From NCBI GenBank assembly GCA_036630325.1, contig CP142728.1, forward strand, positions 806,001 to 870,000: 64,000 nucleotides of DNA, in the 5' to 3' direction. Positions 28,752-53,136 of the stretch are shown piece by piece. The notes under the pieces are model-generated. The model was not told the origin of the DNA. It ran no database searches and saw nothing but the letters and a program-made list of their open reading frames with translations. Made by a program: the position numbers and the translations under genes. This DNA is from Vairimorpha necatrix. Taxonomy: Eukaryota. Numbering within the stretch: the stretch's first letter is position 1; each line of letters starts with the position of its first letter.

Positions 28752-30352
28752 TTACTTTACCCACACATGGGATCAATAGGATACCATAACGATGAAGGTC
28801 GTAATAGAATACGAAATTATATTATTTACCTAATTAATATATTTATAATGTATTGATAACCCTTTGAACTTAAGCATATCATTAAAAGGAGGAAAAGAAA
28901 CTAACTAGGATTTCTTTAGTAGCAGCGAGTGAACAAGAAAAGACCCTCCATTGTAATCCTTAATTGGAGTTGTAAATGGTTTATTCTATTAATTATATTT
29001 ATAGAGAATATTATATTCGTTATTAATAGAATAGAATAATGTACTTGAGTAGAGCTGCTTGGTAGTGCAGTTTGAATAAAGGTAGAATGAAATATCTAAG
29101 GTTAAATATAATGGTATACCGATAGAAAATAAGTACTGCGAAGGAACTTGTGAAAATGTGTGGAGTTTAGCCTTATTTTTAAGGACCCGTCTTGAAACAC
29201 GGACCAAGGAGATTATAATTATAGCAAGATAAAAATTAAATTTTTTAATCTTTATTAACTTGATTAGTTATAATTATAAGACCCGAAACACAGTGAACTA
29301 TACATGTTCTGGTTGAAGATAAACAACAGTTTATTGGAAGACCATAATCATTCTGACGTGCAAATCGATGATTTAAGATGTGTATAGTGGCGAAAGACCA
29401 ATCGAACTGTGTGGTAGCTGGTTCACAGCGAAATGTCTCTCAGGACAGCAGTTATTATTATATAGGACATAGATGTAGGACACTGTTATAGTTTTTTAAC
29501 TATGAAAAATCTTTAATTCTATGGAATTATATAAATTAAATTTATATAATGAATCTATTGTATAACTAGTGGGCACATGATTGTAAGAATGATGTGCAAA
29601 AAGGGATGAACCTTATGAAACATTAAATATTCTAAATAGTAGATATTATACCATAAATATGATGAATACATTGAGACAGTAGGGCGGTTGTTATGGAAGT
29701 AGAAATCCGCTAAGAAACGTGTTACAACGTACCTACCGAATGTATTATTGTATAAAATGGAAGAAGATTACTACTTTTATGAGATGTTTCTAATAAATAT
29801 TTAGGTAGCTGTGCAATTTGTTTGTATTGAAGTATATATGTGAGTGTATATAGAAGAAACAAATGAGCTGATCTTGGAGGCAGTAACAATATATTTGTAT
29901 AGATATAGACTAGGGTTTTCAATTATTATTGAAGTGAATCGGTGTTATTTATAAAAACAAAAAAGATTAATAATTCTTTATTAAATTATTATAAGGTAAC
30001 TTGATAATGACAGTATATTTCAATAAATTTAAGATAAATGAATTAAATTTTATTTTAACTATGGATTGTCATGATAAGAAATAGTTAATTATATATACTT
30101 GATAAAAATAAAATAATTTTAACCGTACCTATACCGCATCAGGTGTCTTTGTATCATAACAAATATTTTAAATTAAAGTAAGTAAGGGAATTCGGCAAAT
30201 TAGATCTGTAACTTTGGGATAAAGATTGGCTCTAGCATGCTAGAACTTTTACTATGTAAGGAATCTGACTGTTTATTAAAAACATAGCTTTTTGTATTTA
30301 CAAGAAGTGAATTCTGCCCAGTGCATTTATTGTTAAAGTTGTGTAAGCGAAT

Positions 30353-30405
<53 letters not shown>

Positions 30406-30504
30406 TTAATTGGTGACGCGCATGAATGGAGCAACGAGATTCCTACTGTCCCTACTTACAATTTTGTGAAACCACGAGACAAGGGAACGGGCTTGTTATT
30501 TATC

Positions 30505-30536
<32 letters not shown>

Positions 30537-30971
30537 TTAGTATGTTTTAATAAATATTCGGTATATTGTAGAGAGGTGGGAGAAGTATTGTGAAACCACT
30601 AGTATGTTTGAATATTTATTTATTAGAATATATGGGGAGTTTGGCTGGGGCGGTACAGCTGTTAAAAAGTAACACAGCTGTCCTAAGGTAGATGAATGAT
30701 GGATGGTAACCATCAGTTTATTATAAGGGAATAAATCTGCTTTACTTTATGCATATGACTGTATTTAGTAGGGAAACCTTGGCCTAGCGATCCCAATTAC
30801 ATTCATTATGTATTGGGTGATTGAAAAGTTACCACAGGGATAACTGGCTTGTAGCAGGCAAGCGATCATAGCGACTCTGCTTTTTGATTCTTCGATGTCG
30901 TCTCTTCTGATCATCGTAGTGTATATGTTACGAAGTGTTGGATTGTTCACCCGGTAATGAGGAACGTGAGA

Positions 30972-31013
<42 letters not shown>

Positions 31014-31245
31014 TAAGTATTTTTGAGTGAACTTTGATAGTACGAGAGGAACTCTAAGTGATGACCACTGGTAGTGCGATTAACTATTAAGTTATGTTGC
31101 TTAGCTACGTCGTTTCGATTAAGGCTGAAGGCCTCTTAAGCCTGAAGCGTAGCTCAAAGATACATTTAGGAGAATACTACTCTTTTAAGCAGAACTGTAA
31201 GAATGAAGGTGTATGCCGACATTTTGAGGTTACTGCTTTTTTTGT
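28752..31245 (+). rRNA. Large-subunit rRNA with fused 5.8S
   Basis: ACGATGAAG 5.8S motif, GAACTTAAGCATATC, ACCCGTCTTGAAACACGGACC, TTAAGGTAGCCAAATGCCTC, sarcin-ricin loop AGTACGAGAGGAAC. The 3' end is uncertain (31240-31300). Confidence 0.95.
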
Positions 31246-31300
31246 ATGTAAAGTAGGTGTTGTATACTATAAGAGAGCGTACTTTATGTCTAGATTTGGT

Positions 31301-31368
31301 ACCCTTACAAGAGAGAGTCTACGTCGCGGAGGGCGGGACCGATGTTTTTTAACTAGGTGCAGATCTCT
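31301..31368 (+). ncRNA. HDV-like ribozyme, degenerate copy
   Basis: Homolog of 38377-38445 with changes in P1 (ACCCTT/GGAGGGC), P3 (GAG/CGC) and L3 (TCTACGT). Confidence 0.7.
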
Positions 31369-31374
31369 ACCAAA

Positions 31375-34271
31375 ATGAAGGGTAAAGTAAGAGAAAGCAG
31401 GAGCGAGCTCAGTAGAGCAAAAAGTGACCACTTTGGTGGTCCAAACAACGATTTAGATACAGAAATGTATTTAAAACAACAAACTAAGCATGTATATGCT
31501 AGTAAAAGTTTCCCAAGTGTTACTTTCAAAAATGATGGAGAAATGGGCGCAACGGTCAGAACCCGGACTTTCCATAATATTTTACGTACTGAATCCGGGT
31601 ACTGACCGTAAAGTGGGGAAATGTTTTTTACGAACCATATCCCCAAGAGTCGAAATTTTACAGATTTGTTTAAATTTCATTCGCATTAACATTTCTTGAG
31701 TTATAAACATTTTTGTTTTTTAGATGATTTTTTCAAAAATATTTTACCCTTATGGTATGTATGGAGCCGCTTGACAGTAGGTCGAAAATATTCCAAGACC
31801 CACATGAGGAAATATGTTGGTTAGTGGATGAAAATCTACTAAAAACAACAATGGAATGTACGAAATGTCCTGGTATAATGATATTAACACCGGACGATTC
31901 GTACATGAACTGCCACCGGTTTAAGTGTAGGGGGAAGACTGGATGTGGAACATCAATCGGAGTTTTTGATAAAACTTCATTTTCTAATCCCCGAATACCT
32001 ATACATAATTATTTGTATATTCTGTATTCGTTCACTGAAAAGCAGTCTACACTAAACCTAAACAAAAATTCCCGGGTGTCTGCTTCCAGTGTCTTCAGGG
32101 CTAAAAAAAAATATACGAAGCACTGAAAAAAGAAAATCTCAAACACCAAAAAAAAAATTGGAGGATTTGAAGAAGTGACACAGCCGATGAAACGGTTATA
32201 GTAAAGGGGAAGTTTGTCAAAGCTCCAACGGAAAGATATGACACAGTCAAAAACTGTGTGTGGTTGGTAGGGACGATAGACGAGCGAACGTTAGAACTGA
32301 GAATCGAAATAGTACCTAACCGGACTATACAGACGATGACTCGGTTTTTTGTAAAGTATATAAAAAACGACACTACATGCATAACTGATGGTCATAAATC
32401 TTATCCCGCTGCAGTAGAATCTATCAACGGTGATCATCGCGTTGTAATTCATGATGAAGGCTTTAAAACAAAGCAGTAGAGACCACAAACTTAATAGAAG
32501 GTGTTTGGTCACATCTTAAATGTGATATAATAGCTAGAAAAGGGATCAAAGAAAGTGCTATCCCTGATTTTTTGGAAGAATTTAAGTGGAGAAGAAGATG
32601 TGCAATTTATAAAAACATCAAAAGTTCAAGAGAGTTCTTCATTGAAATTATCAAAGTTTTCTTAGAATAAAATGGTTTTTTATTATTATTATTTTTTTTC
32701 GTTTCTCTCCAAGGGGGGACCCTTAGAGAGAAAAAAAGTCCGGGTTCTGACCGATGCGCCGAGAAATGAAATATTTTCTCAAGAAAATCAAAATTCTTTC
32801 AGAAAGAATTAATAAAAATGATATTTTGGACACATCAAAAAAAGATAACAATAAAGATCTTATTGATCTTAAAAGATACATATCTAGCACTACTGAATTA
32901 GTATTGATTCAGCAGACATATTTGGAGCTCTTCCATGACAAGCTAGAAAGACAAAACATCAAACTAAAAAATTTGATTAAAAATAATGTGATGGATGACA
33001 GTGATCAAATTACTGAATCATCAAAAAACAAATTTGAGATAATGATTGAGAATCACTCAAAAGAATGTGTAGAACAAAAGGATTATAACTCCGATGTTCC
33101 AAATGATACCAGTAGCGAAACCCTTCAGTTAGCTACTGGAAACAATGATATTTCTAAATTAGAAATCATAAATGAAGATGTTTTAATTAATGTCAAAAAT
33201 ATCGTGTCTGCTGTCAAAGTAGAAGAAGAAGATCGATTGTCAGAAGATGGCAAAAGAAAATGTATAGGTGTCTCAAATGCGTCTACAAATACTATAATTA
33301 ATAAAAATATTAAAACAAAAGATGTTAAGCTAGACTTAGCTTCCATTAATAAAAAAGCAGTAGTTAGACATCTGTCAACTATCTCTGCTATTATAGCTGG
33401 TAAAAGAAAAGCTCCTAAGAATGGAGTAAAACTTTACCATACAAATGAAGACGGATGGACATCTGTCAAACACACATTCAAGCCTAAAGTCCAGATAGAC
33501 TTGAAGAAAAACAGAAGTGGCAAAACCACGCATAAATCCAACTTTATTAGATTTAAATCACTTAAAGTAGAATCCGGTGGCAATGTAAAAGTGCCCAAAA
33601 ATTCTATTCATGCAGCTTTACATGAGAAAAACAAAATATCTACTAAAGACTATAAAAAAGAAAGATTACAAAATCATAAAATAAATTTTACTCAAAAAAT
33701 GAAGAATAGAAAAAATGAGAAATGTCAACAAAAAAGAAGTTCAGTTTTACCAAAGAAAAACTGGGCCAAAGAGCTATCAGACGAAGCTCTTATGAAAATT
33801 ATAAAGGATGGTAGAATTATTTCCAATTGTAAGTTTAGGATAGCTCTTGTGTCTGGACTCGGATTGAAAGGGAAACCTCAATCTAGAGACGCTTGGGCAG
33901 CCTTAGCTGATGTGGAAAATAAAGATATACCACTTATAAAACAATTTAAAGATTCGGAAGTAGTACTTCTGATGATTAGAGAACACGTGTGCCAAAAGGT
34001 ACTAAGCAAGATTAAAGAAAAGTTCGGAGGTTCTAATATCTGCGATGAAGTTAATTTCTTTATCGACTTTTTGTCTTTAACAAAAACAACTGTTCTAGGA
34101 GAGCTGCAAAGACTCTCTGGAACGCATAAAAATTTTGTACCGCTTGTAAAAGCATGTTGGTACATAACTAAAGAATTAAATAAAGAAAAGCCAAACCATG
34201 GTTCTTTCATTTATTTAGAAAATATGATGGGTGAGCCTGCCCGAGAATCTAAGGACTTTAACAATGAATAA
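31375..34271 (+). pseudogene. LINE ORF1 (basic, coiled-coil-like), split by a Merlin insertion at 31546-32760
   Basis: MKGKVRES...KNDGEM joins KYFLKKIK... once the transposon and one TSD are removed; matches the uninterrupted start of copy 2 at 39333. Confidence 0.9.
31546..32760 (+). mobile_element. Merlin (IS1595/ISXO2-like) DNA transposon, frameshifted transposase about 31752-32670
   Basis: 26-bp TIR GGCGCA(A/T)CGGTCAGAACCCGGACTTT; 8-bp TSD GAGAAATG (31538-31545, 32761-32768); ADET, WLVGTIDE, ITDGHKSY and IEGVWS motifs. Confidence 0.93.
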
Positions 34272-37200
34272 AGTATCTTTGTTAAAGTCCTGTTATTATA
34301 GGAAATTATTTTCCTATAACAAGAGTGATATTTTCAAATCTCTAAATAAAAAAACGCATAATCCAATTGGATTTACTCAGATTAAAAATACTTTCCAAAC
34401 GACAACGAGATTGAAAAGTCTCAAGTATTTTTTCATTAGAAAGAATATGTGGTGGAAGAAAGTACAAGAACAATATTGTATTGTCAAGATACAAAGAATT
34501 CCTTATGGAGTGAAAGATCTCCTCAAAGACTTATGTAAGAAGAACTCTTTTTTGGAGAATTCCATTATTACAGCAAGAAAATATAGACGAAGGGACACGT
34601 CATTCACAAAAATAATAGTTGAAAAACTACATGCAAAGTTATTGATTAAGACAGTTAAAGCTAAAGGCTTTAAAGTTTTAAATGATAATAGAAAAGAACT
34701 AGAGAAATCTAGTAAAGTAAATAAAAAGACCAAAGAGAACATAAAACTCTTAAGTCTAAACATTAACCATCTCTCTAATAAGAGATTAGAACTTGAGTTT
34801 CTTCTTAAGAAGGAGAAACCAGAAATTATGTGCTTACAGGAAACTTGGAGACAATCTACAAGACCTTTAAAACTTGAAAAATACACTACAGTTGAAACAC
34901 CTAGTGGTGGAAAAAATAAACCAGGATTAATAACTCTGGTTAGAAATAATGGAGCGATCAGATGTTCCAAAAAAGGAACCGACTCAAACATTCTGCAAAC
35001 TGTAGTTGAGTTTAGTTCAGCAGGCAAATGGATTAAGTATTTAGTCTTAAATGTCTACATACCACAAAACAAGGATCTCAAAAGGGAGACCTTGGCCAGA
35101 TTATTTTCTCTTTTAGAAAAAGAGAATTTCAGAAATAACTATAGTGAGATCATAGTGATGGGAGATATGAATATGCAGAGTTCTAGTCTCAAGAAAAAAT
35201 TAAGTGTAGTTGGTTTGCCAGTTACAATTAAATATAACAGCAAAGATGGTACAAGGATTCTCAAAGATGGTAAAAGATCTAAGAGGAAAATTGATACCAT
35301 CTTTCGACTAAAAAGTAATGATAATGAGAAGATCATTATATCCAAGTCTTGGGTATTAAGTGATCACTTAGTGCTCAAAAGAAAAATTAAACTTGCCGTT
35401 GATAAGATCTCAGATCAACTAGTTTATGATAAGAAAATGCTGGAAAATCCAAAAGTGATTAAAAAGCTTAAAAAGAAGTTGTGTAATCAACAATTAAACA
35501 TGAATAATCTTCCTGAGATTATTCAAAAAGTTTGTACATCTTTGAAGATTTACAAAAAGAGAAGATTCCATACTGGACTTACAATGAGATGGAGATATTT
35601 AAAAGTCTTCAAAGAAAAACGTCTAGCAGCAAGAGCTGTTATGAAAAATTACAATGAAATCAACTCAATTAGATTCGAATATCTCAAAAAGAGAGTAGAC
35701 GAAACTAAAAAGTTGATTCGCAAAGATAGATCGAAACTTTGGGCTTTAAGAGGAATAAGGTTCTTTAAAAGTAATAGATCCCGAGAATTCTGGCAATGGC
35801 TGAAAAATAGAAGTGTCTCCATTCGTTTGGATCAAGTGGCTCTAATTGACCACAATAAGATTCTTCAGACTTGCCGAGCAAAGAAGCTAGAAATAGCGAA
35901 TAAATTTTACGCTGATTTGGCGTCAGAGAATGATATAGATGTCAATGTCTATGATAAAGTAGATCTTGTTGATCTTCCCCCAGAGATAACAGATGAAGAA
36001 TTTTTATCCGCACTGAAGAAATGTGGAAATAACAAAGCAGCCGGTCCTGATGAGATTCCAACCGAGCTATACAAATACTTACTGACTAGAGCAGTAAAAG
36101 ATAAATTCTTTAAATTCATGCTACATGAATTTAATAAATATATTTGTGGAAATAGTCCTCCTGAATACTGGAGCATGGCAAACATGATTTGCCTCCACAA
36201 AAAAGGAGATGAGACAGATCTGAATAATTATAGGGGAATCTCTTTAATTAACACAATTAGTAAGATCTATCTCAAGATAATAAATGACAGGTTAACTCAA
36301 TTTGTCGAAGAACAAGATATACTCTCTAGATACCAAGCAGGATTCCGAGCAGGTGAAGAGTGTATGAATCAGATTACATCTCTACTAGAAATAGTGAGAA
36401 GAAGAGAATTCAGAGGCCTGAACACAATAATGTGTTTCATTGACTTTGAAAAAGCTTATGATAATGTAAGTCATGACTTATTATTTGAGAAGCTTACAAA
36501 ACTTAATATCCCATTGTATTTAATCAATACAATAAAGGATATTTATAAATATACCACCATGCGTGTGAAAATTGGCGGTGACACGTCAAGTGGTTATAAC
36601 TACAGAAAAGGAGTGAGACAAGGGTGCCCTTGTTCTCCAATGCTATTCAATATATTCATCAATGATATTTTTGACGGCATAGAAGGAGTTTTGATCCCAA
36701 GGTCAAATACGAGAGTTCCGGGACTGATGTTCGCAGATGATATTGTTGTCTTCGGAAACAACATTGATGATCTTAATAATAAGATCAATAGAATTTCTAA
36801 TTGGGCAGTTAATAACAGAATGAAGATTAACTGCTCAAAAAGCGGAGTATTAGAATGGGCTGCTCATTCTAACATACAAGAATTCCGAAGTTTGTATTCT
36901 CTCAGTACAGACTTTGGTGTGATTGAGGAAGTCACTGAATACAGATATCTAGGTGTCTTAACTAAAAGAAACACGCTAGAAGAACACTTGGTCAAAGACG
37001 CAGCAATGCGTGGCAAGAAAGCCTTGGACGCCTTGATGCCCAAGTTGATGAATGGCAGCATCAATCTCTACTTCAAGGCGATCTTAATAAAATGTGTACT
37101 AGTACCCACACTAATGTATGGCAGTGAATTGTGGGGAATGTCAAGTACAAGAGCAGGTAAGATTAACAGGATCTTAAGAAAATCTATCAGAATGATATTC

Positions 37201-37956
37201 AAAAGAGTATTAGTTCCACTAGATAGAGTAATGGACGAGTTCAGTATCGAACGAATTCATATACAAGCAGCTCTAAGTAGATTTAGAGCATACAACAAGT
37301 GGAAACACAATAAGACAATCATATCGGATATAATCTCAATCAATCCGAAAGAAAGAAAAACTACCTGGTGTTCAAGAACACAAAGATGGTTAAAACGATT
37401 TGTCGGCAACGATTATGAATCAAGTGATAGTAGATTTATCACTACAAAAATAATTGATGTACTAAGAAGTCGAAGAACTCTAAATACTTCTTTAGCTGCA
37501 TCAATAGCAAATCAATATGACATAAGAAATTCACAAATAAAATATGTCATGAACAAAATAAATAATAGAAAAATTAGAACATATACTAGATTGAGATGTA
37601 ATCTAGTAAAGTGGTCCTCAGCAATAGCATATTCAAAAAGAATACCAATGAGTTATAGAAACAAATGCTTTTTGTGTGATGGACCACAAGAAAATTTAGA
37701 ACACTTTCTGCTGGAGTGCGTCTGTTTAACTGACATTAGATCATCTTTTGAAAATAAACTGCCTCTACTGACTTGTTCAAAAACAAATAACCAAGAAAAA
37801 ACCAAATTACTTCTTGGTAATAAAATCGGATTAAGAAACAACCCAGAAAAGATAAAAGAACTTTGTTGGACTATAGAGTTCTTAGATAGAATGGTTGTCT
37901 CTAGAAGAATTATATTTGAAAAGAAACTTAAGGAGATAACGAAACAAGGTAATTAA
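34264..37956 (+). CDS. LINE ORF2: AP endonuclease + reverse transcriptase + CCHC zinc finger (intact, about 1230 aa)
   Basis: SLNINHL, CLQET, VMGDMN, IDTIF, SDH; KAAGPDEI, FIDFEKAYD, QGCPCSP, FADD, YRYLG; CFLCDGPQENLEHFLLEC. ATG at 34264 overlaps the ORF1 end (ATGAATAA). Confidence 0.96.
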   Translation: MNKVSLLKSCYYRKLFSYNKSDIFKSLNKKTHNPIGFTQIKNTFQTTTRLKSLKYFFIRKNMWWKKVQEQYCIVKIQRIPYGVKDLLKDLCKKNSFLENSIITARKYRRRDTSFTKIIVEKLHAKLLIKTVKAKGFKVLNDNRKELEKSSKVNKKTKENIKLLSLNINHLSNKRLELEFLLKKEKPEIMCLQETWRQSTRPLKLEKYTTVETPSGGKNKPGLITLVRNNGAIRCSKKGTDSNILQTVVEFSSAGKWIKYLVLNVYIPQNKDLKRETLARLFSLLEKENFRNNYSEIIVMGDMNMQSSSLKKKLSVVGLPVTIKYNSKDGTRILKDGKRSKRKIDTIFRLKSNDNEKIIISKSWVLSDHLVLKRKIKLAVDKISDQLVYDKKMLENPKVIKKLKKKLCNQQLNMNNLPEIIQKVCTSLKIYKKRRFHTGLTMRWRYLKVFKEKRLAARAVMKNYNEINSIRFEYLKKRVDETKKLIRKDRSKLWALRGIRFFKSNRSREFWQWLKNRSVSIRLDQVALIDHNKILQTCRAKKLEIANKFYADLASENDIDVNVYDKVDLVDLPPEITDEEFLSALKKCGNNKAAGPDEIPTELYKYLLTRAVKDKFFKFMLHEFNKYICGNSPPEYWSMANMICLHKKGDETDLNNYRGISLINTISKIYLKIINDRLTQFVEEQDILSRYQAGFRAGEECMNQITSLLEIVRRREFRGLNTIMCFIDFEKAYDNVSHDLLFEKLTKLNIPLYLINTIKDIYKYTTMRVKIGGDTSSGYNYRKGVRQGCPCSPMLFNIFINDIFDGIEGVLIPRSNTRVPGLMFADDIVVFGNNIDDLNNKINRISNWAVNNRMKINCSKSGVLEWAAHSNIQEFRSLYSLSTDFGVIEEVTEYRYLGVLTKRNTLEEHLVKDAAMRGKKALDALMPKLMNGSINLYFKAILIKCVLVPTLMYGSELWGMSSTRAGKINRILRKSIRMIFKRVLVPLDRVMDEFSIERIHIQAALSRFRAYNKWKHNKTIISDIISINPKERKTTWCSRTQRWLKRFVGNDYESSDSRFITTKIIDVLRSRRTLNTSLAASIANQYDIRNSQIKYVMNKINNRKIRTYTRLRCNLVKWSSAIAYSKRIPMSYRNKCFLCDGPQENLEHFLLECVCLTDIRSSFENKLPLLTCSKTNNQEKTKLLLGNKIGLRNNPEKIKELCWTIEFLDRMVVSRRIIFEKKLKEITKQGN

Positions 37957-38376
37957 TATGAATAATTAAAAAAATGAAGATCTAGAAATAGAAGAAAGAG
38001 ACGTTGATTTATTAACAAGAAGACTTATATTTAATTATATTTGACCTGGGAGAGGTCGGGCATGATACTGATGCTGTATTGTTCCGCTGAACTGAGTCGT
38101 GTTCTTAAATGGTGTATTGAGCCAGGCGTTTTCGTTTTTCATTAGACCCATGAAAGTGGGTCTCTAGTCATATTATGACTAAGGATGTGTCCTATGGGAA
38201 CAAACTTTTCTCCTACAAGCGAGGCCGTTAAGGTATGCTGGCGTGTAAGCGCACTTATTGATGATTTTTTCTTTATTAGTGGAGTTTTTGGTGCTTTGGA
38301 GGCTTTTCTTCGTTTTGCTGATTCTGTCTTTTTTTACAATAAACAATTTTAATTTTTTTTTTAGGTGCAGATCTCT

Positions 38377-38445
38377 ACCCTCCACAAGAGAGCGTCCACG
38401 TCGCGGAGGGTGGGACCGATGTTTTTTAACTAGGTGCAGATCTCT
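38377..38445 (+). ncRNA. HDV-like self-cleaving ribozyme (intact nested double-pseudoknot fold)
   Basis: P1 ACCCTCC/GGAGGGT, P2 AGAGA/TCTCT, P3 GCG/CGC, L3 TCCACGT, P1.1 CC/GG, P4 ACC...GGT, J4/2 GCAGA with the putative catalytic C at 38437. Confidence 0.88.
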
Positions 38446-38872
38446 AAGTCTTACCAACCTTCGGCTGCTGGTTGGTAAGTAGGGTCAGCTATACTCTAGG
38501 GGTGGGAGACCCATTGCTGGTGAGAAGAACGCCGTTAACTTTCGAGTAATTCTTCATATTTTTAACCTGGGAGAGGTTGGGCATGATACTGAAGCTGTAT
38601 TGTTCCGCTGAACTGAGTCGTGTTCTTAAATGGTGTATTGAACCAGGCGTTGTGTTTTCGTCAGGTCCGCGAAATATGTAGTCAGAGATGACTAAGGATC
38701 TGTTACCTACGGGAACAAATTTTTCTCCTACAAGCGAGGCCGTTGAGGTATGCTGGCGTGTAATCGCAATTATTGATGTTTTTCTGGTTGGTGGAGTTTT
38801 TGGTGGCTTGGTGGCTTTTCTTCGTTTTGCTGATTCTTTCTTTTTTACAATAAACAATTTTATTTTTTTTTT
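38446..38872 (+). mobile_element. Non-autonomous SINE/SIDE-like unit 1 sharing the LINE 3' tail
   Basis: About 120-nt head, then ACCTGGGAGAGG...ACAATAAACAATTTT(T)n homologous to LINE 3' UTR 38044-38362; 441-bp periodicity with unit 2. Confidence 0.85.
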
Positions 38873-39315
38873 AGGTGCAGATCTCTAAGTCTTACCAACC
38901 TTCGGCTGCTGGTTGGTAAGTAGGGTCAGCTATACTCTAGGGGTGGGAGACCCATTGCTGGTGAGAAGGACACCGTTAACTTTCGAGTAATTCTTCATAT
39001 TTTTAACCTGGGAGAGGTTGGGCATGATACTGAAGCTGTATTGTTCCGCTGAACTGAGTCGTGTTCTTAAATGGTGTATTGAACCAGGCGTTGTGTTTTC
39101 GTCAGGTCCGCGAAATATGTAGTCAGAGATGACTAAGGATCTGTACCTACGGGAACAAATTTTTCTCCTACAAGGGAGGCCGTTGAGGTATGCTGGCGTG
39201 TAAACGCAATTATTGATGTTTTTCTGGTTGGTGGAGTTTTTGGTGGCTTGGAGGCTTTTCTTCGTTTTGCTGATTCTGTCTTTTTTTACAATAAACAATT
39301 TTATTTTATTTTTTT
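38873..39315 (+). mobile_element. Non-autonomous SINE/SIDE-like unit 2
   Basis: Near-identical to unit 1; begins with AGGTGCAGATCTCT; followed by AGTCTTACCAAC. Confidence 0.85.
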
Positions 39316-42300
39316 AGTCTTACCAACACCCTATGAAGGGTAAAGCGCAACAAACCAGGAGCAAGCTCAGTAGAGCAAAAAGTGACCACTTTGGTGGTCC
39401 AAACAACAATTTAGATACAGAAATGTATTTAAAACAACAAACTAAGCATGTATATGCTAATAAAAGTTTCATAAGTGTTACTTTCAAAAATGATGGAGAA
39501 ATGAAATATTTTCTCAAGAAAATCAAAATTCTCTCAGAAAGAATTAATAAAAACGATATTTTCGACACGTCAAAAAAAGAAAATAACAAAGATCTTCTTG
39601 ATATTAAAAGATACATATCTAGCACTACTGAATTAGTATTGATTCAGCAGACATATTTGGAGCTCTTCCATGATAAGCTAGAAAAACAAAATATCAAATT
39701 AAAAAATTTGAAAAAAAATAATCTGATGGATGACAGTAATCAAATTACAGAATCAACAAAAAATAAAATTGAGATGATGATAGAGAATCACTCAAAAGAA
39801 TATGTAGAACAAAAGGATAATAACTCCGATGTTCCAAATGATACCAGTAGCGAAACCCTTCAGTTAGCTACTGGAAACAATGATATTTCTAAATTAGAAA
39901 TCATCAATGAAGATGTTTTAATTAATGTCAAAAATCTCCCATCTGCTGTCATAAATCTCGACACTGCTGTCAAAGTAGAAGAACAAGATAAATTGTCAGA
40001 AGATGGCAAAAGAAAATGTATAGATGTTTCAAAGGCATCTACAGATATTATAATTAATAAAAATATTAAACCAAAAGATGGTAAGCTAGATATAGCTTCC
40101 ATTAACAAAAAAGCAGTAGTTAGACATCTGTCAACTATCTCTGCTATTATAGCTGGTAAAAGAAAAGCTCCTAAGAATGGAGTCAAGCTTTTCCATATAA
40201 ACGAAGACGGATGGACATCTGTCAAACACACATTCAAGCCTAAAGTCCAGATAGACTTGAAGAAAAACAGAAGTGGTAAAACCACAGATAAAACCAACTT
40301 TAATAGATTTAAATCACTTAAAGTAGAAACTGGTGGCAATGTAAAAGTGCCTAAAAAGATTAATCATGAAGCTGTAAAGAGAAAAGATATCATTCATAAA
40401 AAAGATCATGAAAAAAGAAGATTACTAAATCAGAAAATAAATTTTACAAAAAAAAACGAAGGACAGAAAAAATGAGAAATGTCAACAAAAAAGAAGGCCA
40501 GTTTTACCAAAGAAAAACTGGGCCAAAGAGCTAACTGAAGAAGCTCTTATGAAAATTATAAAGGACGGTAGAATTATTTCCAAATGTAAGTTTAGGCTAG
40601 CTCTTGCTTCTGGACTCGGATTGAAAGGGAAACCTCAATCTAGAGACGCTTGGGCAGCCTTAGCTGATGTGGAAAATAAAGATATACCACTTATAAAACA
40701 ATTTAAAGACTCGGAAGTAGTACTTCTGATGATTAGAGAACACGTGTGCCAAAAGGTACTAAGCAAGATTAAAGAAAAGTTCGGAGGTTCTAATATCTGC
40801 GATGAAGTTAATTTCTTCATCGACTTTTTGTCTTTAACAAAAACAACTGTTCTAGGAGAGCTGCAAAGACTCTCTGGAACGCATAAAAATTTTGTACCGC
40901 TTGTAAAAGCATGTTGGTACATAACTAAAGAATTAAATAAAGAAAAGCCAAACCATGGTTCTTTCATTTATTTAGAAAATATGATGGGTGAGCCTGCCCG
41001 AGAATCTAAGGACTTTAACAATGAATAAAGTATCTTTGTTAAAGTCCTGTTATTATAGGAAATTATTTTCCTATAACAAGAGTGATATTTTCAAATCTCT
41101 AAATAAAAAAACGCATAATCCAATTGGATTTACTCAGATTAAAAATACTTTCCAAACGACAACGAGATTGAAAAGTCTCAAGTATTTTTTCATTAGAAAG
41201 AATATGTGGTGGAAGAAAGTACAAGAACAATATTGTATTGTCAAGATACAAAGAATTCCTTATGGAGTGAAAGATCTCCTCAAAGACTTATGTAAGAAGA
41301 ACTCTTTTTTGGAGAATTCCATTATTACAGCAAGAAAATATAGACGAAGGGACACGTCATTCACAAAAATAATAGTTGAAAAACTACATGCAAAGTTATT
41401 GATTAAGACAGTTAAAGCTAAAGGCTTTAAAGTTTTAAATGATAATAGAAAAGAACTAGAGAAATCTAGTAAAGTAAATAAAAAGACCAAAGAGAACATA
41501 AAACTCTTAAGTCTAAACATTAATCATCTCTCTAATAAGAGAGAAGAACTTGAGTTTCTTCTTAAGAAGGAGAAACCAGAAATTATGTGTTTACAAGAAA
41601 CTTGGAGACAATCTACAAGACCTTTGAAACTTGAAAAATACACTGCAGTTGAAACACCTAGTGGTGGAAAAAATAAACCAGGATTAATAACTCTGGTTAG
41701 AAATAATGGAGCGATCAGATGTTCCAAAAAAGGAACCGACTCAAACATTCTGCAAACTGTAGTTGAGTTTAGTTCCGCAGGCAAATGGATTAAGTATTTA
41801 GTCTTAAATGTCTACATACCACAAGACAAGGATCTCAAGAGGGAGACCTTGGCCAGATTACTTTCTCTTTTAGAAAAAGAGAATTTCAGAAATAACTATA
41901 GTGAGATCATAGTGATGGGAGATATGAATATGCAGAGTTCTAGTCTCAAGAAAAAATTAAATGTAGTTGGTTTGCCAGTTACAATAAAATATAACAGCAA
42001 CGATGGTACAAGGATTCTCAAAGATGGTAAAAGATCTAAGAGGAAAATTGATACCATCTTTCGACTAAAAAGTAATGATAATGAGAAGATCATTATATCC
42101 AAGTCTTGGGTATTAAGTGATCACTTAGTGCTCAAAAGAAATGTTAAACTTACTGTTGATAAGATCTCAGATCAACTAGTTTATGATAAGAAGATGCTGG
42201 AAAATCCAAAAGTGATTAAAAAGCTTAAAAAGAAGTTGAGTAATCAACAATTAAACATGAATAATCTTCCTGAGATTATTCAAAAAGTTTGTACATCTTT

Positions 42301-42898
42301 GAAGATTTACAAAAAGAGAAGAGTCCATACTGGTCTTACAATGAGATGGAGATATTTAAAAGTCTTCAAAGAAAAACGTCTAGCAGCAAGAACTGTTATG
42401 AAAAATTACAATGAAATCAACTCAATTATATTCGAATATCTCAAAAAGAGAGTTGACGAAACTAAAAAGTTGATTCGCAAAGATAGATCGAAACTTTGGG
42501 CTTTACGAGGAATAAAGCTCTTTAAAAGTAATAGATCCCGAGAATTCTGGCAATGGCTGAAAAATAGAAGTGTTTCCATTCGTTTGGATCAAGTGGCTCT
42601 AATTGACCACAATAAGCTTCTTCAGACTTGCCGAGCAAATAAGCTAGAAATAGCGAATAAATTTTACGCCGTATTAGCGTCAGAGAATGATATAGATGTC
42701 AATGCCTATGATAAAGTAGATCTTGTTGATCTTCCCCCAGAGATAAAAGATGAATAATTTTTATCCGCACTGAAGAAATGCGGAAATAACAAAGCAGCCG
42801 GTCCTGATGAGATTCCAACCGAGCTATACAAACACTTACTGACTAGAGCAGTAGAAGAAAAATTCTTTAAATTCATGCTACATGAATTTTTTAAATAT

Positions 42899-45800
42899 TG
42901 TGGTCTGTTGGTTTCCCAACAGACCGAGAAGAATGTTTTAAGCCATATTTTTTATTATCCTTCATACCCTTCTGGGCATGAATTTCTTTTATGTTTGTCG
43001 GAGGGAAAATATACAATATTTTCCCTCCAAAAACATAATTGGGAAGAGGAAGAGAATACTTATAGAATAGTATTCTCTGGTCTCCAGGGTAATCTTAGGA
43101 CCACTGGAGAACTGTTCCTTGACACTCCCCCCTTCTTTATTGGCTCCCATGTTTCCAGCTCAAAGTCCATCTTTTTTAAGTCTTTCCCATTTACCTTAAA
43201 CACGTCATTATTGGGATTTTTTATCTCGTATGCACCTTTCCTCCCGACTTTCGTTATAGCGTATGGGCCTTCAAATTTGCTGTCTAGTTTATTTCTAATG
43301 CTTATAGGTGGTTTTCTTCTTAATACCACATCACCTACTTGAAGTGCAAATTCTTTCCCCTCTACTATTTCCCTTTCTCTGGCCTCTCTTTCGGCTTGTA
43401 ACATAGTATCACGGGTTTGCTTCAATCTTTCAAATATTAAAAAATTATCTTCTAAACATAAGAGTTCTCTTTCGGGATGCTCCCATAATAAGGGTTTCCG
43501 TCCGTATAATAATTCAAAAGGAGAAAATCCTGTCTTCTTCCTCGGAGAAATTCTGTATGCGTACAGAGCCAGTTCAAAATCTTCATCCCAGTCTTTCCAC
43601 CTTCCATTTATCATTTTAGCCAGTTTTGCTACTAATGATTGGTTGGTTCTCTCTACCGTGCCATTGCATTGTGGGTGGTAAGCTGAAGTAAAAGATTTCT
43701 TTATTTTAAATATTCCACATAATTCCTTGACCGTGTTGTTCAAAAATTCAAGTCCTCTATCTGATAGTAATTCGTTGGGCGGACCATGTCTACATACTAT
43801 TTCTTCAAAAATAAATTTAGCTACCGTCTTAGCCGATTTATTTCTCACGGCTTTTGCTTCGCACCATCTTGTTAGATAATCCGTGGCAACTATTAAATAT
43901 GTTTTCCCATTTTCCGACTTAGGTAGAGGACCTACCATATCAATTCCTATCAGTGAAAATGGGTCCTTGAGTCGAATTCTATGATGTTGCTTTGGTGTTC
44001 TTTTTAAATTAAATTTTAGACACACCTGACATTTTTCGAGTTCCTGTTTAATATCTGCGTACATACCTTTCCATTTTGTTTTATCGAGAACTAAAGCATA
44101 TGTTGGATACATACTGCCATGTCCACACTCTTCGTGACATTTTAAAATCAGTTCTTTACGACTCTCGGCCGATAATTCTAGTTCATCTTCATAATTTACT
44201 ACATGAACAAATCTCGTTAGTCCGTCCGCTATAATGTTCTCTTTGCTTTTTATATATTCAATGTCATATGAGTAGTTTTAGAGTGTGAGAATCCATCTCA
44301 TTAATCTACCAGTGCTCTCTTTATAACTCAGCAGCCATTTGAGGGCGTGATGATCTGTTCGAATTGTAAAAGTATTTGTTAGGTAAATCCGGAACTGGGA
44401 TATGCTCCATATTATTGCCAAGCATTCCTTTTCGGTTACGGTGTAATTAATTTCAGCAGTATTTAATTTCCTTGAGATAAAATATACGGGCATTTCAGTC
44501 TTCTCGTATCTTTGCATCAGTGTTGCTCCTATGTAAAGGTTGGATGCATCTGTGTATAAGATAAATCTCTTATTGAAGTCCGGTAACTTGAGAACGGGAG
44601 AGCTCGTAATAATTTCTTTTATTTTCCCTACACTTTGTTTTGCTTCTTCAGAAAAATATAAATTTACCTTTCTTCAAGCAGTCATAGATAGGAGCCATTA
44701 TATCTGTATAATTCCTTATAAATTTTCTAAAATAGTTTATGAACCCAATAAAGGCTCTAGTTTCTTTAAGAGTGGCTGGGATTTTTAAATTAAGACATTT
44801 CGTCTGTTGCTCAAGTGGTATACTTACTCCATTCTTATTTATCGTATATCCCAAAAAATTCACCGTATTCTTTCCGATTTTACATTTTTTGTGATTAACT
44901 TTCAATTTCAATTTGTTTAAAATTTCAAAAACTGCTTCAATGTGCTTTACGTGCTCTTCAATCGATCTAGAGTATATCATAATGTCGTCTAGATATACTT
45001 GTACAAATTTATGTAGGTACGGAGACAGTATAGAATTCATTATCTTATGGAATGTAAAGGGTGCATTTACGAGTCCAAATGGCATCCTAACCCATTGAAA
45101 CGTTTTTGTCCTACTCCTAATAGCTGTAAGATATCTATCTTTTCCCGAATTCTTATTTGATGGTACCCAGATTCCAAGTCCAATACTGTAAATATAGATG
45201 CTCCTTGTAATTCTTCTATAGTTTCTTATACAAGTGGAATAGGATAGATCATCTTCTTTGTGATTTTATTCAACCTTCTAAAGTCTATGCAAAATCTAAT
45301 ATCACCATTAGGTTTCTTGACAAGAACCACCGGGGAAGTATAGTCTGATTCACTGTTCTCAATAAATCCTATACTCAAAAACTCTTGAATCTTACTTTCA
45401 ATAATCTCGTTTTGTTCTGGAGATCTTCTGTATTGAATATTTCTTACTTCCGAAAAGTCATTTGTTATTTCTATGGCGTGCTCAATATCTAAGCTTGATT
45501 TTAAATCATTATTGTGGAAAACAGCTGGATACTTTGAGATAAGTTTATTAAATTTTTCTTTGTCCTCCTGTGCCGTGTCTTCTTCTCCGACGTCTACAGT
45601 TTGAGTTTCGAGTACTTCGGGAGTTGTTGTGCAGACTGATTTTGTTATTAACGCATTTCTCATCTTATCAAGAATTTTGAGTAAGTTCAGATTTAGAACA
45701 TCTGAGAGGCCAATAATAAGGTCTTCTGGTAAGTTTTCTACTACATGTGCTTCTAATATTCTCGTTTTCTTAGTTTTAGGCTCTTTGACACTAAATTCCA

Positions 45801-46906
45801 CTATGCCTTCTGATTTCACTGTACCGCCCACTCCTACTATATTCAGGGTCTCTTTTCTTGGATTCAGACCCAATAGTTGGGCCTTCTTTTTATTAATGCA
45901 ATTAATTTCCGCTCCCGTGTCAATGAGCGCAGCAATCTTTTCTCTCCCTGAAAAAAAATTAATCCTTGCTCGGACATCCGATAAATTATCGTTTTTAGCC
46001 ACTCTACCTATCTTTAGGATTAATGAAGAATTTGTCTGTACTGCTTTCTTGGGGACAGTTTTATATTCTTTCATTTCTTGACAGGTTACTTTATTCTGTG
46101 GCTTTTTAAAAAAAGTTTTCCTTTTCTTTAGGTATTTATTTATTAAAAAATCCTTTTCTTCTACGAGTTCTAGTAACTCTATCCACTCTTTGGTTTCACT
46201 GATCGCCTCCTTTAATATCTCGGGGGAGTTTCTTCCAATCGCAATCTTAGATCTCTCAAAGTGCTCAATGCTTCCTTTAGCACACCTTTTTAGGTCATAA
46301 GCGTAACTCAAGATGTCGCTTTCCTTCGGACCCTCTACGTATAGGTGCATGAATAGATCTGTTACGTCTTCCACTAGTTTTTTTTTTTAGGTATTTTTTA
46401 TTAAAGTGGGATTTGAATGTCTCGTAATCTACAATCTCCTCGCCCTCAAAAGCTTTAAAACATTTCAACGCTTTGCCTTTTAGTTTTGACTTGGCAATAT
46501 CTAGCGTCTTCGCTTGAGAGTACACATCTTCAATTTCTCGAAATTGAGACAGAAAGTCTTCGGCTTTGTTCAGATCTTCGCCGGTAAATTCTAACCATCT
46601 GTTCTGAAGACATAGTTTTTTCATTTGAGAAAGGATGTTGTCGAGATCATCGCTCTTATCCTCATCATCGTTACCACCATTGTGGTCTGTTGGTTTCCCA
46701 ACAGACCGAGAAGAATGTTTTAAACCATATTTTTTATTATCCTTCATACCCTTCTGGGCATGAATTTCTTTTATGTTTGTCGGAGGGGAAATATACAATA
46801 TTTTCCCTCCAAAAACATTATTGGGAAAAGGAAGATAATACTTATAGAATAGTATTCTCTGGTCTCCAGGGTAATCTTAGGACCACTGGAGAACTGTTCC
46901 TTGACA
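42899..46906 (-). mobile_element. Ty3/gypsy retrotransposon, 226-bp LTRs, TSD AATAT, disrupted gag-pol
   Basis: LTRs 42899-43124 and 46681-46906 (TG...CA); AATAT at 42894-42898 and 46907-46911; PBS TGGTGGTAACG; PPT 43125-43138; IDTGA, YLDD and integrase motifs. Confidence 0.95.
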
Positions 46907-49089
46907 AATATATTTGTGGAAATAGTCCTCCTGAATACTGGAGCATGGCAAACATGATTTGCCTTCACAAAAAAGGAGATGAGACAGATCTGAATAATTA
47001 TAGGGGATCTCCTTAATTAACACAATTAGTAAGATCTATCTCAAGATAATTAACGACAGATTGACACAATTTGTTGAAGAAAATAACATCATCTCTAAAT
47101 ACCAAGCAGGATTAGAGAAGGCTAAGAATGTATGAACCAAATTACTATCCTACTTGAAGTAGTAAGAAGAAGAGAATTCAGAGGCGTGAACACAGTGATG
47201 TGTTTCATAGACTTTGAGAAAGCTTATGATGATGTAAGTCATGACTTATTATTTAGTAAGCTAGAAAATCTAGATATCCCCAGGTATTTGATAAATACAA
47301 TAAAGGATATCTATAAAAGCACCACCATGCGAATAAAAATCGTCGGGGAAACATCAAGTGGCTATAACTACAGAAAAGGGGCGAGGCAGGGGTGCCCCTG
47401 TTCTCCAATGCTGTTCAATATATTCATAAGCGATCTTTTGATGACATAGATGGTGTCTTGATTCAAAGATCAAATACAAGAGTTCCAGGACGGATGTTCA
47501 CCGATGATATCGTTGTCTTTGGAAACAACATTGATGATCTAGAAAATAAGATCAAAAGAATTTCGAAATGGGCAGTTGACAACAGAATGAAAATTAACTG
47601 CAAGAAGAGTGGAGTATTAGAATGGAATGTTAAATCTAATATTCAAGAAATTAGAAGTTTGTATTCCATCAATACAGACTTTGGCATGATTGAAGAAGTC
47701 ACAGAATATAGATATCTATGTGTTTTAATAAAGGAAACGCACTTGAAGAACATTTGGTCAGAGACGCGGCAATGCGTGGATCGAAACCCCTAGACGCCCT
47801 GATGCCTAAGTTGATGAATAATAGCATCAACCTCTATTTAAAGGCGATCTTAATAAAATGTTTACTAGTACCCACACTAATGTATGGTAGTGAATTGTGG
47901 GGAATGTCAAGTACAAGAGCAGGTAAGATTAACAGGATCTTAAGAAAATCAATGAGGATGATATTCAAACGAGTATTAGCTCCCCTAGATAGATTATTGG
48001 ACGAATTCAGTATCGAACGAATTCATATACAAGCAGCTTTAAGTAGATTTAGAGATACAACAAGTGGAAACACAATAAGACAATAATATCGGATATAATT
48101 GCAATCAAACCGAAAGAAAGAAAAACTACCTGATGTTAAAGAACACAAAGATGGTTAAAACGATTTGTCGGCAACGAATACGAATCAAGTGATAGTAGAT
48201 TTATCACTTCAAAAATAATTGATGTACTAAGAAGTCGAGAACTCTAAATACTTCCTTAGCTGCATCAATAGCAAATCAATATGACATAAGAAATTCACAA
48301 ATAAAATATGTCATGAACAAAATAAATAATAGAAAAATTAGAACATATACTAGATTGAGATGTAATCTAGTAAAGTGGTCCTCAGCAATAACCAATTCAA
48401 AAAGAATATCTATGAGTTATAGAAATAAATGCTTTTTGTGTGATGGACCACAAGAAAATTTAGAACACTTTCTGCTAGAGTGCGTCTGTTTAACTGACAT
48501 TAGAACATCTTTTGAAAATAAACTGCCTCTACTGACTTGTTCAAAAACAAATAACCAAGAAAAAACCAAATTACTTCTTGGTAATAAAATCGGATTAAGA
48601 AACAACCCAGATAAGATAAAAGAACTCTGTTGCATAAAAGACTACTTAGACAAGATGGTTGTCTCTGGAAGAATTATATTTAATAACAAACTTAAAGAGA
48701 TAACAAAACAAGATAATTAATATAGAATAATTAAAAAATGTAGATCTAGAAATAGAAGAAAGAGGCGTTGATTTATTAACAAGAAGACTTATACTTAATT
48801 ATATTTGACCTGGGAGAGGTCGGCCATGATACTGATGCTGTATTGTTCCGCTGAACTGAGTCGTGTTCTTAAATGGTGTATTGAGCCAGGCGTTTTCGTT
48901 TTTCATCAGACCCATGAAAGTGGGTCTCTAGTCATATTATGACTAAGGATGTATCCTATGGGGACAAACTTTTCTCCTACAAGCGAGGCAGTTAAGGTAT
49001 GCTGGCGTGTAAACGCGATTATTGATGTTTTTCTTATTGGTGGAGTTTTTGGTGGCTTAGTGGCTTTTCTTCGTTTTGCTGATTCTGTC

Positions 49090-52000: not shown

Positions 52001-53097
52001 AAAGAACATCATAGAATTCGTCTAAAGGAACCATTTTCCCTAGTGGTTATCGATATCGTAGGTCCATTACCTAAATCAGAAAACGGAAAGGTGTATTTAA
52101 TAGTAGCTACAGACTACCTAACCAGATGGTGTGAAGCAAAGGCCGTGAAGAATAAGACGGCAAAAATGGTAGCTAAATTTATTTTCGAAGAGATTGTATG
52201 TAGACATGGGCCTCCAAACGAACTACTATCAGACAGGGGACTTGAATTCTTAAACATTACAGTCAAAGAAATATGTAGAATCTTCAATACACGAAAATCT
52301 TTTACTTCGTCTTATCATCCACAATGTAACGGTACAGTAGAGAGAACTAATCAATCTCTTGTAGCGAAACTGGCCAAAATTACAAACGGAAGATGGAAGG
52401 AATGGGACGAATACCTAGAGCTGGCTCTATATGCTTATCGAATCTCTCCAAGAAAAATAACAGGGCATTCCCCATTTGAATTGTTGTATGGACGTAAACC
52501 GCAGACATGGGAACAGATAAGTGAAGAGTTAATACCAATAGAACCCAATTTATTAATATTCGAAAGGCTAAAACGGACCCGAGAAATTATGCTTCAAGCA
52601 GAAAGAGAAGCACGGGAAAGAGAAATGGGAAGTGTGAAAGAACAAACATTGAAGGTAGGTGATATAGTATTGAGACGTAAACCTCCCATTAATATAAAAA
52701 ATAAATTAGACAGTAAATTTGAAGGTCCATATACTATAACAAAAATCGGCAGGAAAGGCGCGTATGAAATAGTAAGTCCAAATACCGTGGTTTTCTCAGT
52801 GAATCAGAAGGATCTAAAGAAGATGGATGTTGAAATGGAAACATGGGAGCCTCTAAAGGAGGGGGGAGTGTCACGGGACAGCTCTCCAGTGGCCTTACGC
52901 CTACCCTGGAGGCCAGAGAATACTAGTATATAGAAAGTCTCCTCTTTATTTTAATCATGTTTTTGGAGGGAAAATGTACCGCATTTCCCCGCCCATAAAC
53001 ATAAAAGAAAATCATCCCTAGAAGGGTATGAAGAAATCTAATAAACAGTTTAACAGTAAAGATTCTTCGAGGACTGTTGGACATACAACAGTCCACA
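49090..53097 (+). mobile_element. Ty3/gypsy retrotransposon (sister family), about 228-bp LTRs, TSD CTGTC, disrupted gag-pol
   Basis: LTRs 49090-49317 and 52869-53097; CTGTC at 49085-49089 and 53098-53102; PBS TGGTGGTAACGG; PPT AAAGGAGGGGGGAG; IDTGA, YLDD, RNaseH and integrase. Confidence 0.95.
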
Positions 53098-53136
53098 CTG
53101 TCTTTTTACAATAAACAATTTTAATTTTATTTTTTT

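Follow-up and report, generated by a model that had tools for sequence, protein, structure and literature searches.

A Candidate Ribozyme-Headed, SIDE-Like Retroposon Behind the LSU rRNA Gene of a Microsporidian

Introduction

Ribozyme-headed, rDNA-specific LINEs that carry short parasites have been described mainly from insects, in the form of the R2/R1 SIDEs, and from trypanosomes, in the form of the L1Tc/NARTc pair. The R2 and R2/R1 hybrid SIDEs of Drosophila are short, non-coding rDNA elements (Eickbush & Eickbush 2012, PMC3414825). In Trypanosoma cruzi, L1Tc and NARTc share their first 77 nt, a segment that contains an HDV-like ribozyme cutting at +1 and also serves as an internal promoter (PMC3383444). 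For R2, both ribozyme cleavage and priming at the junction have been described (PMC3774820).

Within the microsporidia, the entries on rDNA (Nosema bombycis) in passages of a review of rDNA transposable elements are MITEs only (PMC10946416), and the words SINE and rDNA are absent from passages of Parisot et al. 2014 (PMC4202319). We found no paper on a microsporidian rDNA-specific LINE, SIDE-like element, or self-cleaving ribozyme, a point on which supplementary TE lists could bear. The genome paper of Vairimorpha necatrix gives 18–20 dispersed rDNA loci per haplotype (PMC10759460), and dispersed, variable rDNA units have been reported in these genomes (PMC10759460, PMC3566094).

Here, we analyzed a stretch of 64,000 nucleotides from V. 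necatrix, referred to as the window, in which two short units lie between LINE copies downstream of an rRNA gene. With a probability of roughly 0.6, we read these units as a SIDE/NARTc-like, non-autonomous, non-coding retroposon that is co-transcribed with rRNA and mobilized by the LINE, whose own insertion site would be the 3' edge of the LSU rRNA gene.

Results

Organization of the rDNA unit and the array

In the window, retroelements form a head-to-tail array behind a microsporidian rDNA unit (Table 1); the DNA is AT-rich, with a G+C content of 24–38%. The 5.8S-like part of the LSU lies upstream of 28837. At the other end of the gene, the archaeal Rfam model (RF02540) stops at 31261 with high posterior probability, and the eukaryotic model reaches 31358, inside a ribozyme-like block designated variant A, or block A. 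A search for the mature LSU 3' end through pairing between the 3' and 5' regions of the LSU, using RNAduplex and blastn-short, was uninformative.

On the plus strand, from the LSU end to approximately 54410, the order of the array is block A, LINE1, T, block B, short element 1, T, short element 2, LINE2 (not preceded by T), and short element 3. T denotes a 15-bp repeat, TAGGTGCAGATCTCT, which forms the last 15 nt of both block A and block B. Four copies occur in the window (31354, 38362, 38431, and 38872), a number reached by none of 100 shuffles, and they lie on both sides of LINE1 and of short element 1. This arrangement is consistent with a series of insertions at T, every one of which would have left a 15-bp duplication. 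LINE1, the member nearest the LSU, is 5'-truncated within the leader, the short sequence with which LINE2 and the short elements open. As for the order of insertion, the junctions would fit a history in which a composite of short element 2, LINE2, and short element 3 arrived first, followed by short element 1, in full length and with its own block B, and finally LINE1.

Two further observations at the edges of the array are offered as leads. The native LSU end (31285–31300) resembles repeat T, and the hexamer TAGATT is found at 31291–31296 and again at 54410–54415, possibly an outer duplication. Between short element 3 and an older tail remnant, region 54411–56492, no clear structure was found.

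Table 1. Coordinates of the rDNA genes, ribozyme-like blocks, and retroelements within the window.
Feature	Positions	Strand	Remarks
Microsporidian SSU rRNA gene	27476..28722	+	Rfam RF02542, 1057 bits
LSU rRNA gene	28837..31300	+	Rfam RF02543, 1340.8 bits; 3' limit uncertain
Ribozyme-like block, variant A	31301..31368	+	68 nt, directly ahead of LINE1; decayed
LINE1	31369..38361	+	ORF1 32751–34271; ORF2 34228–37956; 3' UTR 37957–38361, T-run at end
Repeat T after LINE1 tail	38362..38376	+	Read as target-site duplication
HDV-like ribozyme candidate, variant B	38377..38445	+	69 nt, at head of short element 1
13-nt leader	38446..38458	+	Common to LINE2 5' end (39316–39327)
Unique head of short element 1	38459..38556	+	98 nt; nt 25–34 pair with leader, 10-bp hairpin
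Tail of short element 1	38557..38871	+	Homologous to LINE 3' UTR; T-run at end
Repeat T between short elements 1 and 2	38872..38886	+	
Short element 2	38887..39315	+	Leader + head + tail, own ribozyme block absent; abuts LINE2
LINE2	39316..53136	+	Opens with leader minus 1 nt; two nested LTR retrotransposons, 42897–46906 and 49091–53097
Short element 3	54169..54410	+	5'-truncated; short-element tail variant

The partner LINE

ORF2 of the LINE encodes an N-terminal Exo_endo_phos (AP-endonuclease) domain and RVT_1, which identifies the element as an AP-endonuclease LINE and not an R2-type element. R2 has a single ORF with a C-terminal restriction-like endonuclease, and membership in the R2 clade is ruled out for the partner LINE by its two ORFs and N-terminal AP-endonuclease domain. 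A protein labelled Vairimorpha necatrix shares 88% identity with the ORF2 product across 14% of the length of the latter, and clusters whose named members come from Vairimorpha ceranae show 55–56% full-length identity to it.

Of the leader, LINE1 retains the final 5 nt (ACCAA), which run directly into the 5' UTR that the LINEs share; in LINE1 this UTR is split by a 1.2-kb TIR element (31546–32760) flanked by an 8-bp TSD, GAGAAATG. In the LTR retrotransposons nested within LINE2, the LTRs diverge by 2–4%, similar to the 2.1% that separates short elements 1 and 2. All LINE and short-element tails carry an AATAAA-like motif followed by a terminal T-run of variable length.

Anatomy of the short elements

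A first-pass annotation, made from the sequence, had described two units of about 441 bp, each composed of the LINE leader, a unique head of about 105 nt, and a tail of about 310 nt homologous to the LINE 3' UTR. The repeat itself was readily recovered: Tandem Repeats Finder reports 38431–39314 with a period of 441, 2.0 copies, and 97% matches, and blastn within the window aligns short element 2 (38887–39313) to the unit at 38446–38886 with 97.9% identity over 428 nt. The unit limits required adjustment, as the 441-bp period is the sum of the 15-bp T and a short element of 426–429 bp; the second unit ends at 39315, and LINE2 follows from 39316 without T. The tail is close to the described length, at about 315 nt. 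Positions 112–441 of the unit match the LINE1 3' UTR (38036–38376) with 86.9% identity over 343 nt, and the tail matches the LINE2 3' UTR (48800–49090) with 86.3% identity over 293 nt (both blastn). Because homology to the LINE tail already begins at 38557, the head shrinks to 98 nt, while the leader and the uniqueness of the head stand as described.

The uniqueness of the head was evident by two approaches. With blastn on both strands, the first 120 nt of the unit match nothing in the window except the two units. When the head was compared with LINE1, LINE2, and the rDNA by Smith-Waterman alignment, the only stretch exceeding shuffles was the 12-nt leader, located at the exact 5' end of LINE2. 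Allowing at most one mismatch, the leader, AAGTCTTACCAAC, occurs three times (38446, 38887, and 39315), which none of 100 shuffles achieved.

The additional truncated copy that had been placed at 54169 was confirmed. It spans 54169–54410, aligns to the unit 38446–38886 with 90.1% identity over 253 nt (blastn), and possesses the tail variant regarded earlier as diagnostic; in the alignments this variant is present in 3/3 short copies and in neither LINE tail. The short-element tails thus form a lineage, common to all three copies, that differs by approximately 13% from both LINE tails. Short element 3 once abutted the T-run of LINE2, and a Merlin-like transposon (53137–54159, 8-bp TSD) later split them. 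All short-element copies seen, three of them in the window, occupy the same kind of site. Short element 1 is the only one with its own ribozyme block, and short element 2 has just the last 15 nt of the block.

No ORF longer than 66 aa occurs in the short units. An Rfam search of the head at E≤10 gave a sole match, on the minus strand, to an unrelated family (E 6.7, 12.9 bits), which is not credible, and ARAGORN detected no tRNA anywhere in the window. On these grounds we rejected an origin of the head from 5S, from tRNA, or from any other known RNA. The claim that 38377–38872 is a ribozyme-headed, SIDE-like parasite of the LINE gains support from the shared ends, the short ORFs, and a candidate ribozyme block 93% like that of LINE1. 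As to its SIDE-like nature, the LINE leader, 3' UTR, and site all agree, but the 98-nt head does not derive from the LINEs of the window.

At the RNA level, leader and head of the short element form a 10-bp hairpin (−14.6 kcal/mol, z = −2.5). A 5' hairpin common to LINE and short element was considered and rejected, as the LINE 5' ends do not form one. The whole short element folds no better than shuffles (z = −0.49). For the five tails, RNAalifold returns several stems, with two pairs double-changed between the LINE and short lineages (columns 8/22 and 106/162), the first of which closes the hairpin that opens the shared tail block. These double changes hint that the 3' structure of the tail may be conserved and recognized by a protein.

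A candidate HDV-like ribozyme

Variant B is 92.9% identical to variant A over 70 nt (blastn) and can be drawn as a nested double pseudoknot. The proposed stems are P1 (1–7/29–35, 7 bp), P2 (11–15/65–69, 5 bp), P3 (16–18/26–28, 3 bp), P1.1 (20–21/36–37, two C-G pairs), and P4 (39–41/57–59, 3 bp, with a 15-nt AU-rich loop); P2 uses the last 5 nt of repeat T. In this fold 20/20 proposed pairs are standard, compared with 44–60% when the partners are slid. J4/2 reads GCAGA, just before the 3' strand of P2, and contains a C that we take to be at the candidate catalytic cytosine position of HDV-like ribozymes. The 5' edge of the block in short element 1 (38377) coincides with the first nucleotide of P1, where HDV-like ribozymes cut.

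A targeted Rfam scan of 96 nt (38365–38460) returned CPEB3_ribozyme (RF00622) as its sole ribozyme-family match, with 18.3 bits and an E value of 0.0063, below the gathering score of 35. In the 1.5-kb and whole-window Rfam scans this match is absent, having been filtered out. Within the CPEB3 alignment, each of the six aligned P1 pairs is changed on both sides yet kept, and the P3-L3-P3' core is almost identical to the consensus. Variant A has no Rfam match at E≤10; 16/19 of its pairs are standard, and its three defects are a mismatch within P3, a C changed to U in L3, and a P1 of reduced length.

A fold descriptor match covers exactly 38377–38445. The loose version of this descriptor found 15 core matches in the window versus 4–12 per shuffle (12 shuffles); it lacks specificity in AT-rich DNA of this kind and was rejected as a test of significance. 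The structure of variant B was drawn by hand, and the two sequences (A and B) give no covariation. Given the low score, the absence of the match from the larger scans, the defects of variant A, and the unspecific descriptor, we therefore treat the 69-nt block as a candidate, albeit a well-fitting one, for an HDV-like self-cleaving ribozyme.

The block was first taken for the LSU 3' end, because the eukaryotic model extends to 31358 and contigs from other sequencing runs, described below, continue from it into the LSU. An interpretation of the block as a plain LSU 3' end, with T as a simple target, was dropped in light of the archaeal model's end at 31261, the CPEB3 match, and the full fold.

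Copies in other sequencing runs

For comparison, we examined contigs from four public runs, X1 to X4, of which X2, X3, and X4 come from different studies. X1 may be the sample from which the window was assembled; X2 carries a different organism code and a divergent version of the block; X3 is a bat gut metagenome; and X4 is a freshwater metagenome. Contigs of X1 and X4 present the LSU end, ribozyme block, leader, and head in that order. Variant B matches an X1 contig with 0 differences over 38375–38502, and this contig runs at least 255 nt upstream into a complete LSU end. In the window, variant B is instead preceded by the LINE1 tail and T, unlike the LSU-block junction of the X1 contig. Because that junction with block B is absent from the window, one or more additional loci with the order LSU, ribozyme, leader, and head, or else an allele without LINE1, must exist. 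The resident variant in the window is A, and the comparison fits the idea that the variant B copy was brought in from another rDNA unit.

Several contigs join a tail to a truncated copy. In those of X2, a tail T-run is followed by copies whose first nucleotide lies inside the head (38928 and 38954), by copies that start at 38988 and 38991 and so keep the last 10 and 7 nt of the head, and by copies that start in the tail (39115 and 39194). Three X2 contigs join a tail T-run to the start of the ribozyme block. The sides of the X2 joints are only 21–29 nt and were aligned at 88% likeness, an error-prone setting. In an X3 contig, a tail is followed by a copy that begins at 38991, with a side of 59 nt and 0 mismatches over 38991–39083 (93 nt, short-element-specific). 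Variable 5' starts of this sort would be expected from TPRT of an RNA that holds head and tail together. These contigs, with the head beside a complete LSU end and truncated starts after tails, go against the refuting condition named earlier, that the head be confined to this locus; as every copy seen lies at the same kind of site, the copies need not be independent insertions with distinct flanks in the strict sense.

In X1, contig depth is 53–117 on stretches specific to the short element versus 13–20 in the unique sequence flanking element 3 and in the LINE2 5' UTR; because the X1–X4 data are contigs, these run depths are not copy numbers. X1 and X2 also contain some unexplained joints that lead from within an element to where the ribozyme block begins (39231 to 38378, 39049 to 38379, and 38692 to 38386). 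Exact patterns drawn from the head, target, and tail gave 0 matches in metagenome, genome, and viral contig collections.

Discussion

Proposed mechanism

If the short units are a retroposon mobilized by the LINE, their life cycle may be outlined as follows. A short element downstream of the LSU would be transcribed by Pol I within the rRNA precursor. The candidate HDV-like ribozyme, as folded in silico, would cut the co-transcript between GGU and ACCC, yielding an RNA that starts with the ribozyme. The ORF2 protein of the LINE may then recognize the structured 3' UTR, which both elements are observed to have in common. Its endonuclease would nick between AAC and TAGG, and the second strand would be cut 15 bp further, producing the 15-bp duplication of T that the repeats display. 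T doubles as the final 15 nt of the ribozyme block, which would place each new copy behind a resident ribozyme. A cDNA reaching T or the ribozyme could anneal to the resident copy, giving the uniform T-leader junctions; a full-length cDNA would duplicate the ribozyme, as in short element 1 (38377–38871). Template jumps could generate direct tail-to-head joins, such as the series of element 2, LINE2, and element 3. In invoking cDNA annealing and template jumps, we follow postulates made for R2 (PMC3774820, PMC3414825).

Two extensions go further. An HDV-like ribozyme might sit at the LSU end in every working rDNA unit and make the 3' end of the LSU rRNA precursor, with the LINE and its parasite targeting its last 15 nt and riding on host rRNA processing; we regard this as a long shot. 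A further possibility is that copies of 5'-extended co-transcripts helped scatter rDNA units over the chromosomes.

Alternative explanations

The complete units are adjacent and 97.9% identical, the head is found nowhere else in the 64-kb window, and scans of the contig collections gave no independent locus with a different flank. Such a picture could arise from a one-off, immobile chimera, in which a truncated LINE cDNA jumped once onto a head RNA and unequal crossing-over then made a local duplicate of the product. For R2, template jumping to other RNAs has been documented in vivo (PMC3414825). Unequal crossing-over could make one unit from the other, because full units are adjacent and copies lie at the same type of site. 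What makes this account unlikely is the evidence for copies elsewhere: the X1 contig has block, leader, and head behind a complete LSU end, unlike the window copy, and X4, X2, and X3 also hold short-element sequence, with several differing 5'-truncated starts after tails. Both head variants reach several times the unique-flank contig depth in X1, depth not being copy number, and short element 3 has the diagnostic tail yet sits at another join.

Two other origins of the head deserve consideration. Block, leader, and head could together be the 3' external transcribed spacer of the host rDNA, so that the units are pieces of spacer with truncated LINE tails. The block does lie directly after the LSU end and is followed by leader and head, in the window as in X1 and X4, and since the eukaryotic LSU model aligns through most of it, the block could be rRNA or 3' ETS. 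We nevertheless find a spacer origin quite improbable. LINE2 opens with the leader directly after a tail, LINE1 retains the leader's last 5 nt, and copies that start inside the head follow tails. The head-tail join, which lacks T, recurs in units 1 and 2 and in contigs of X1, X2, and X3, and it is a second ribozyme block, not the leader, that comes after the LINE1 tail and T, an arrangement the spacer model does not predict. Alternatively, the head could belong to the UTR of a sister LINE subfamily located outside the window, the units being its truncated or internally deleted copies. Here it is telling that both units, like the contigs of X1 and X4, open with the LINE leader at the same nucleotide, because random 5' truncation would not produce this; the head, moreover, has no similarity to either window LINE. 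The short-element tail is a distinct lineage for which a matching LINE could exist elsewhere, and element 3 alone is indistinguishable from a truncated LINE of such a subfamily. Overall, we judge a sister LINE very improbable, and an internal deletion of one would remain a non-autonomous SIDE, which is the main reading itself.

Implications

If the retroposon reading is true, it widens the range of this lifestyle to include a highly reduced lineage of parasites, adds the LSU 3' edge as a new rDNA target, and supplies a compact, easily tested ribozyme candidate of 69 nt. The elements may also matter for rDNA variation and rDNA-based typing, because rDNA units are dispersed and variable in these genomes (PMC10759460, PMC3566094).

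Comparison with known systems

Measured against what defines a SIDE, the 5' end of the short element corresponds to the ribozyme region of the partner LINE (the block at 92.9% over 70 nt, and a 13-nt leader equal to the LINE2 5' end), the 3' end comes from the LINE 3' UTR, and the site is that of the partner, with a 15-bp duplication. The interior is not LINE sequence throughout, as the 98-nt head shows no similarity to LINE1, LINE2, or the rDNA above shuffles. Because its middle part does not derive from these LINEs, the element falls outside the strict SIDE definition and is better described as a chimera than as a pure internal-deletion SIDE. Nor does it qualify as a classical SINE, since a Pol III-type head is absent. 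Like stringent LINE/SINE pairs, it is a non-autonomous retroposon with a LINE-like 3' tail; unlike them, it is site-specific and lacks both a Pol III box and a head of tRNA, 5S, or 7SL type.

As for the block, variant B can be drawn as the double pseudoknot with a C in J4/2, and its Rfam score lies under the gathering value. With the R2 HDV-like ribozymes (PMC3774820) and the Rfam CPEB3 family (RF00622), it would share the fold class, as predicted here, and the location at a junction of rRNA gene and element. The differences are the score below the Rfam cut-off, a P4 of 3 bp, and another organism and LINE type. The L1Tc/NARTc pair resembles the present one in combining an autonomous AP-endonuclease LINE with a short partner and in a shared 5' ribozyme (a candidate here) that travels along; those elements are dispersed, whereas the ones described here lie behind an rRNA gene (PMC3383444).

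The R2/R1 SIDEs differ from the short element in several respects. Here the partner LINE has two ORFs and an AP-endonuclease and lives in a microsporidian host, and the site is the LSU 3' edge, in place of internal 28S sites. Neither LINE copy of the window is the source of the middle 98 nt, a T-run closes the tail, and the duplicated target is the last 15 nt of the ribozyme block. Both kinds of element nevertheless combine a 5' HDV-like ribozyme, a candidate in our case, with the 3' end of a site-specific LINE, and both use the LINE's own site and target duplication, which is 14 bp for R1-type SIDEs and 15 bp here (PMC3414825). Both are also thought to depend on rRNA co-transcription and on TPRT by the partner, with template jumps in the same arrays (PMC3414825). 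The strategy is already known, and it is the host group that is probably new.

LSU rRNA Boundary and Array Edges

The Rfam eukaryotic LSU model takes in most of the HDV-like ribozyme candidate. This model reaches 31358, whereas the archaeal LSU model places the end of the rRNA at 31261, so the LSU 3′ end called by automatic rRNA annotation may lie too far downstream here. The native LSU end at 31285–31300 (TATGTCTAGATTTGGT) is similar to target T (31354–31368), the 15-mer that closes each ribozyme-like block and is read as a target-site duplication, with C|TAG at the presumed nick in both. TAGATT stands at 31291–31296, shortly before block A (the ribozyme-like block ahead of LINE1), and again at 54410–54415, just after short element 3. 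Judged from sequence, this pair may be an outer duplication of the whole array; chance could also be the source of both the pair and the likeness between the LSU end and T.

In contigs from two public sequencing runs (X1 and X2), the sequence breaks off inside a short element and resumes at the start of the ribozyme block (39231>38378, 39049>38379, and 38692>38386). Simple 5′ truncation does not account for these joints; deletion, recombination, or faulty assembly could have produced them.

Coordinates of junction, insertion, tail, and repeat features
Feature	Positions	Details
HDV-like ribozyme candidate	31301–31368; 38377–38445	69 nt; at the LSU gene/retroelement junction
Insertion in LINE1 5′ UTR	31546–32760	1,215 bp; 23-nt terminal inverted repeats; 8-bp duplication (GAGAAATG)
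Two Ty3/gypsy-type LTR retrotransposons	42897–46906; 49091–53097	nested in LINE2
Merlin/IS1595-like DNA transposon	53137–54159	long terminal inverted repeats; 8-bp duplication (ATTTTTTT)
T-run tail ends	38340–38361; 38855–38871; 39295–39315; 53115–53136; 54395–54409	sense strand
63-nt tandem repeat and inverted 17-nt core copy	60270–60410; 62041–62075	

Insertions and Neighboring Repeats

The insertion in the LINE1 5′ UTR contains broken ORFs. Within LINE2, the terminal repeats of the nested LTR retrotransposons are 98% and 96% identical, and the CTGTC duplication in the LINE tail belongs to the second of them. The LINE2 tail is separated from short element 3 by the Merlin/IS1595-like transposon, whose minus-strand ORF (53251–54057) matches PF12762 (E = 2.4e-15).

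Roughly 2 kb past the array, an older remnant of a related LINE tail (56493–56654, ~75% identical) is followed by a second tail end of 33 nt (56659–56691); by sequence, the two look like another tail-to-tail tandem. Elsewhere in the window, two ORFs of ~485 aa (13012–14463 and 17320–18777) gave no Pfam match, one of them lying between 180-nt direct repeats (12989–13168 and 14482–14661, 97% identical). An integrase-bearing ORF (60951–61847) has the 63-nt tandem repeat on one side and, on the other, a copy in inverted orientation of that repeat's 17-nt core (GGCGTCCAGTCCGAACG); the two may mark the termini of another retroelement.

3′ Ends of the LINE and Its Short Partners

On the sense strand, both the LINE and its short partners carry a terminal T-run that varies in length and might stem from a terminator or from slippage; an AATAAA-like motif precedes it. 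An A-rich tail is absent from these ends, and termination in a T-run in its place is unusual among LINEs.
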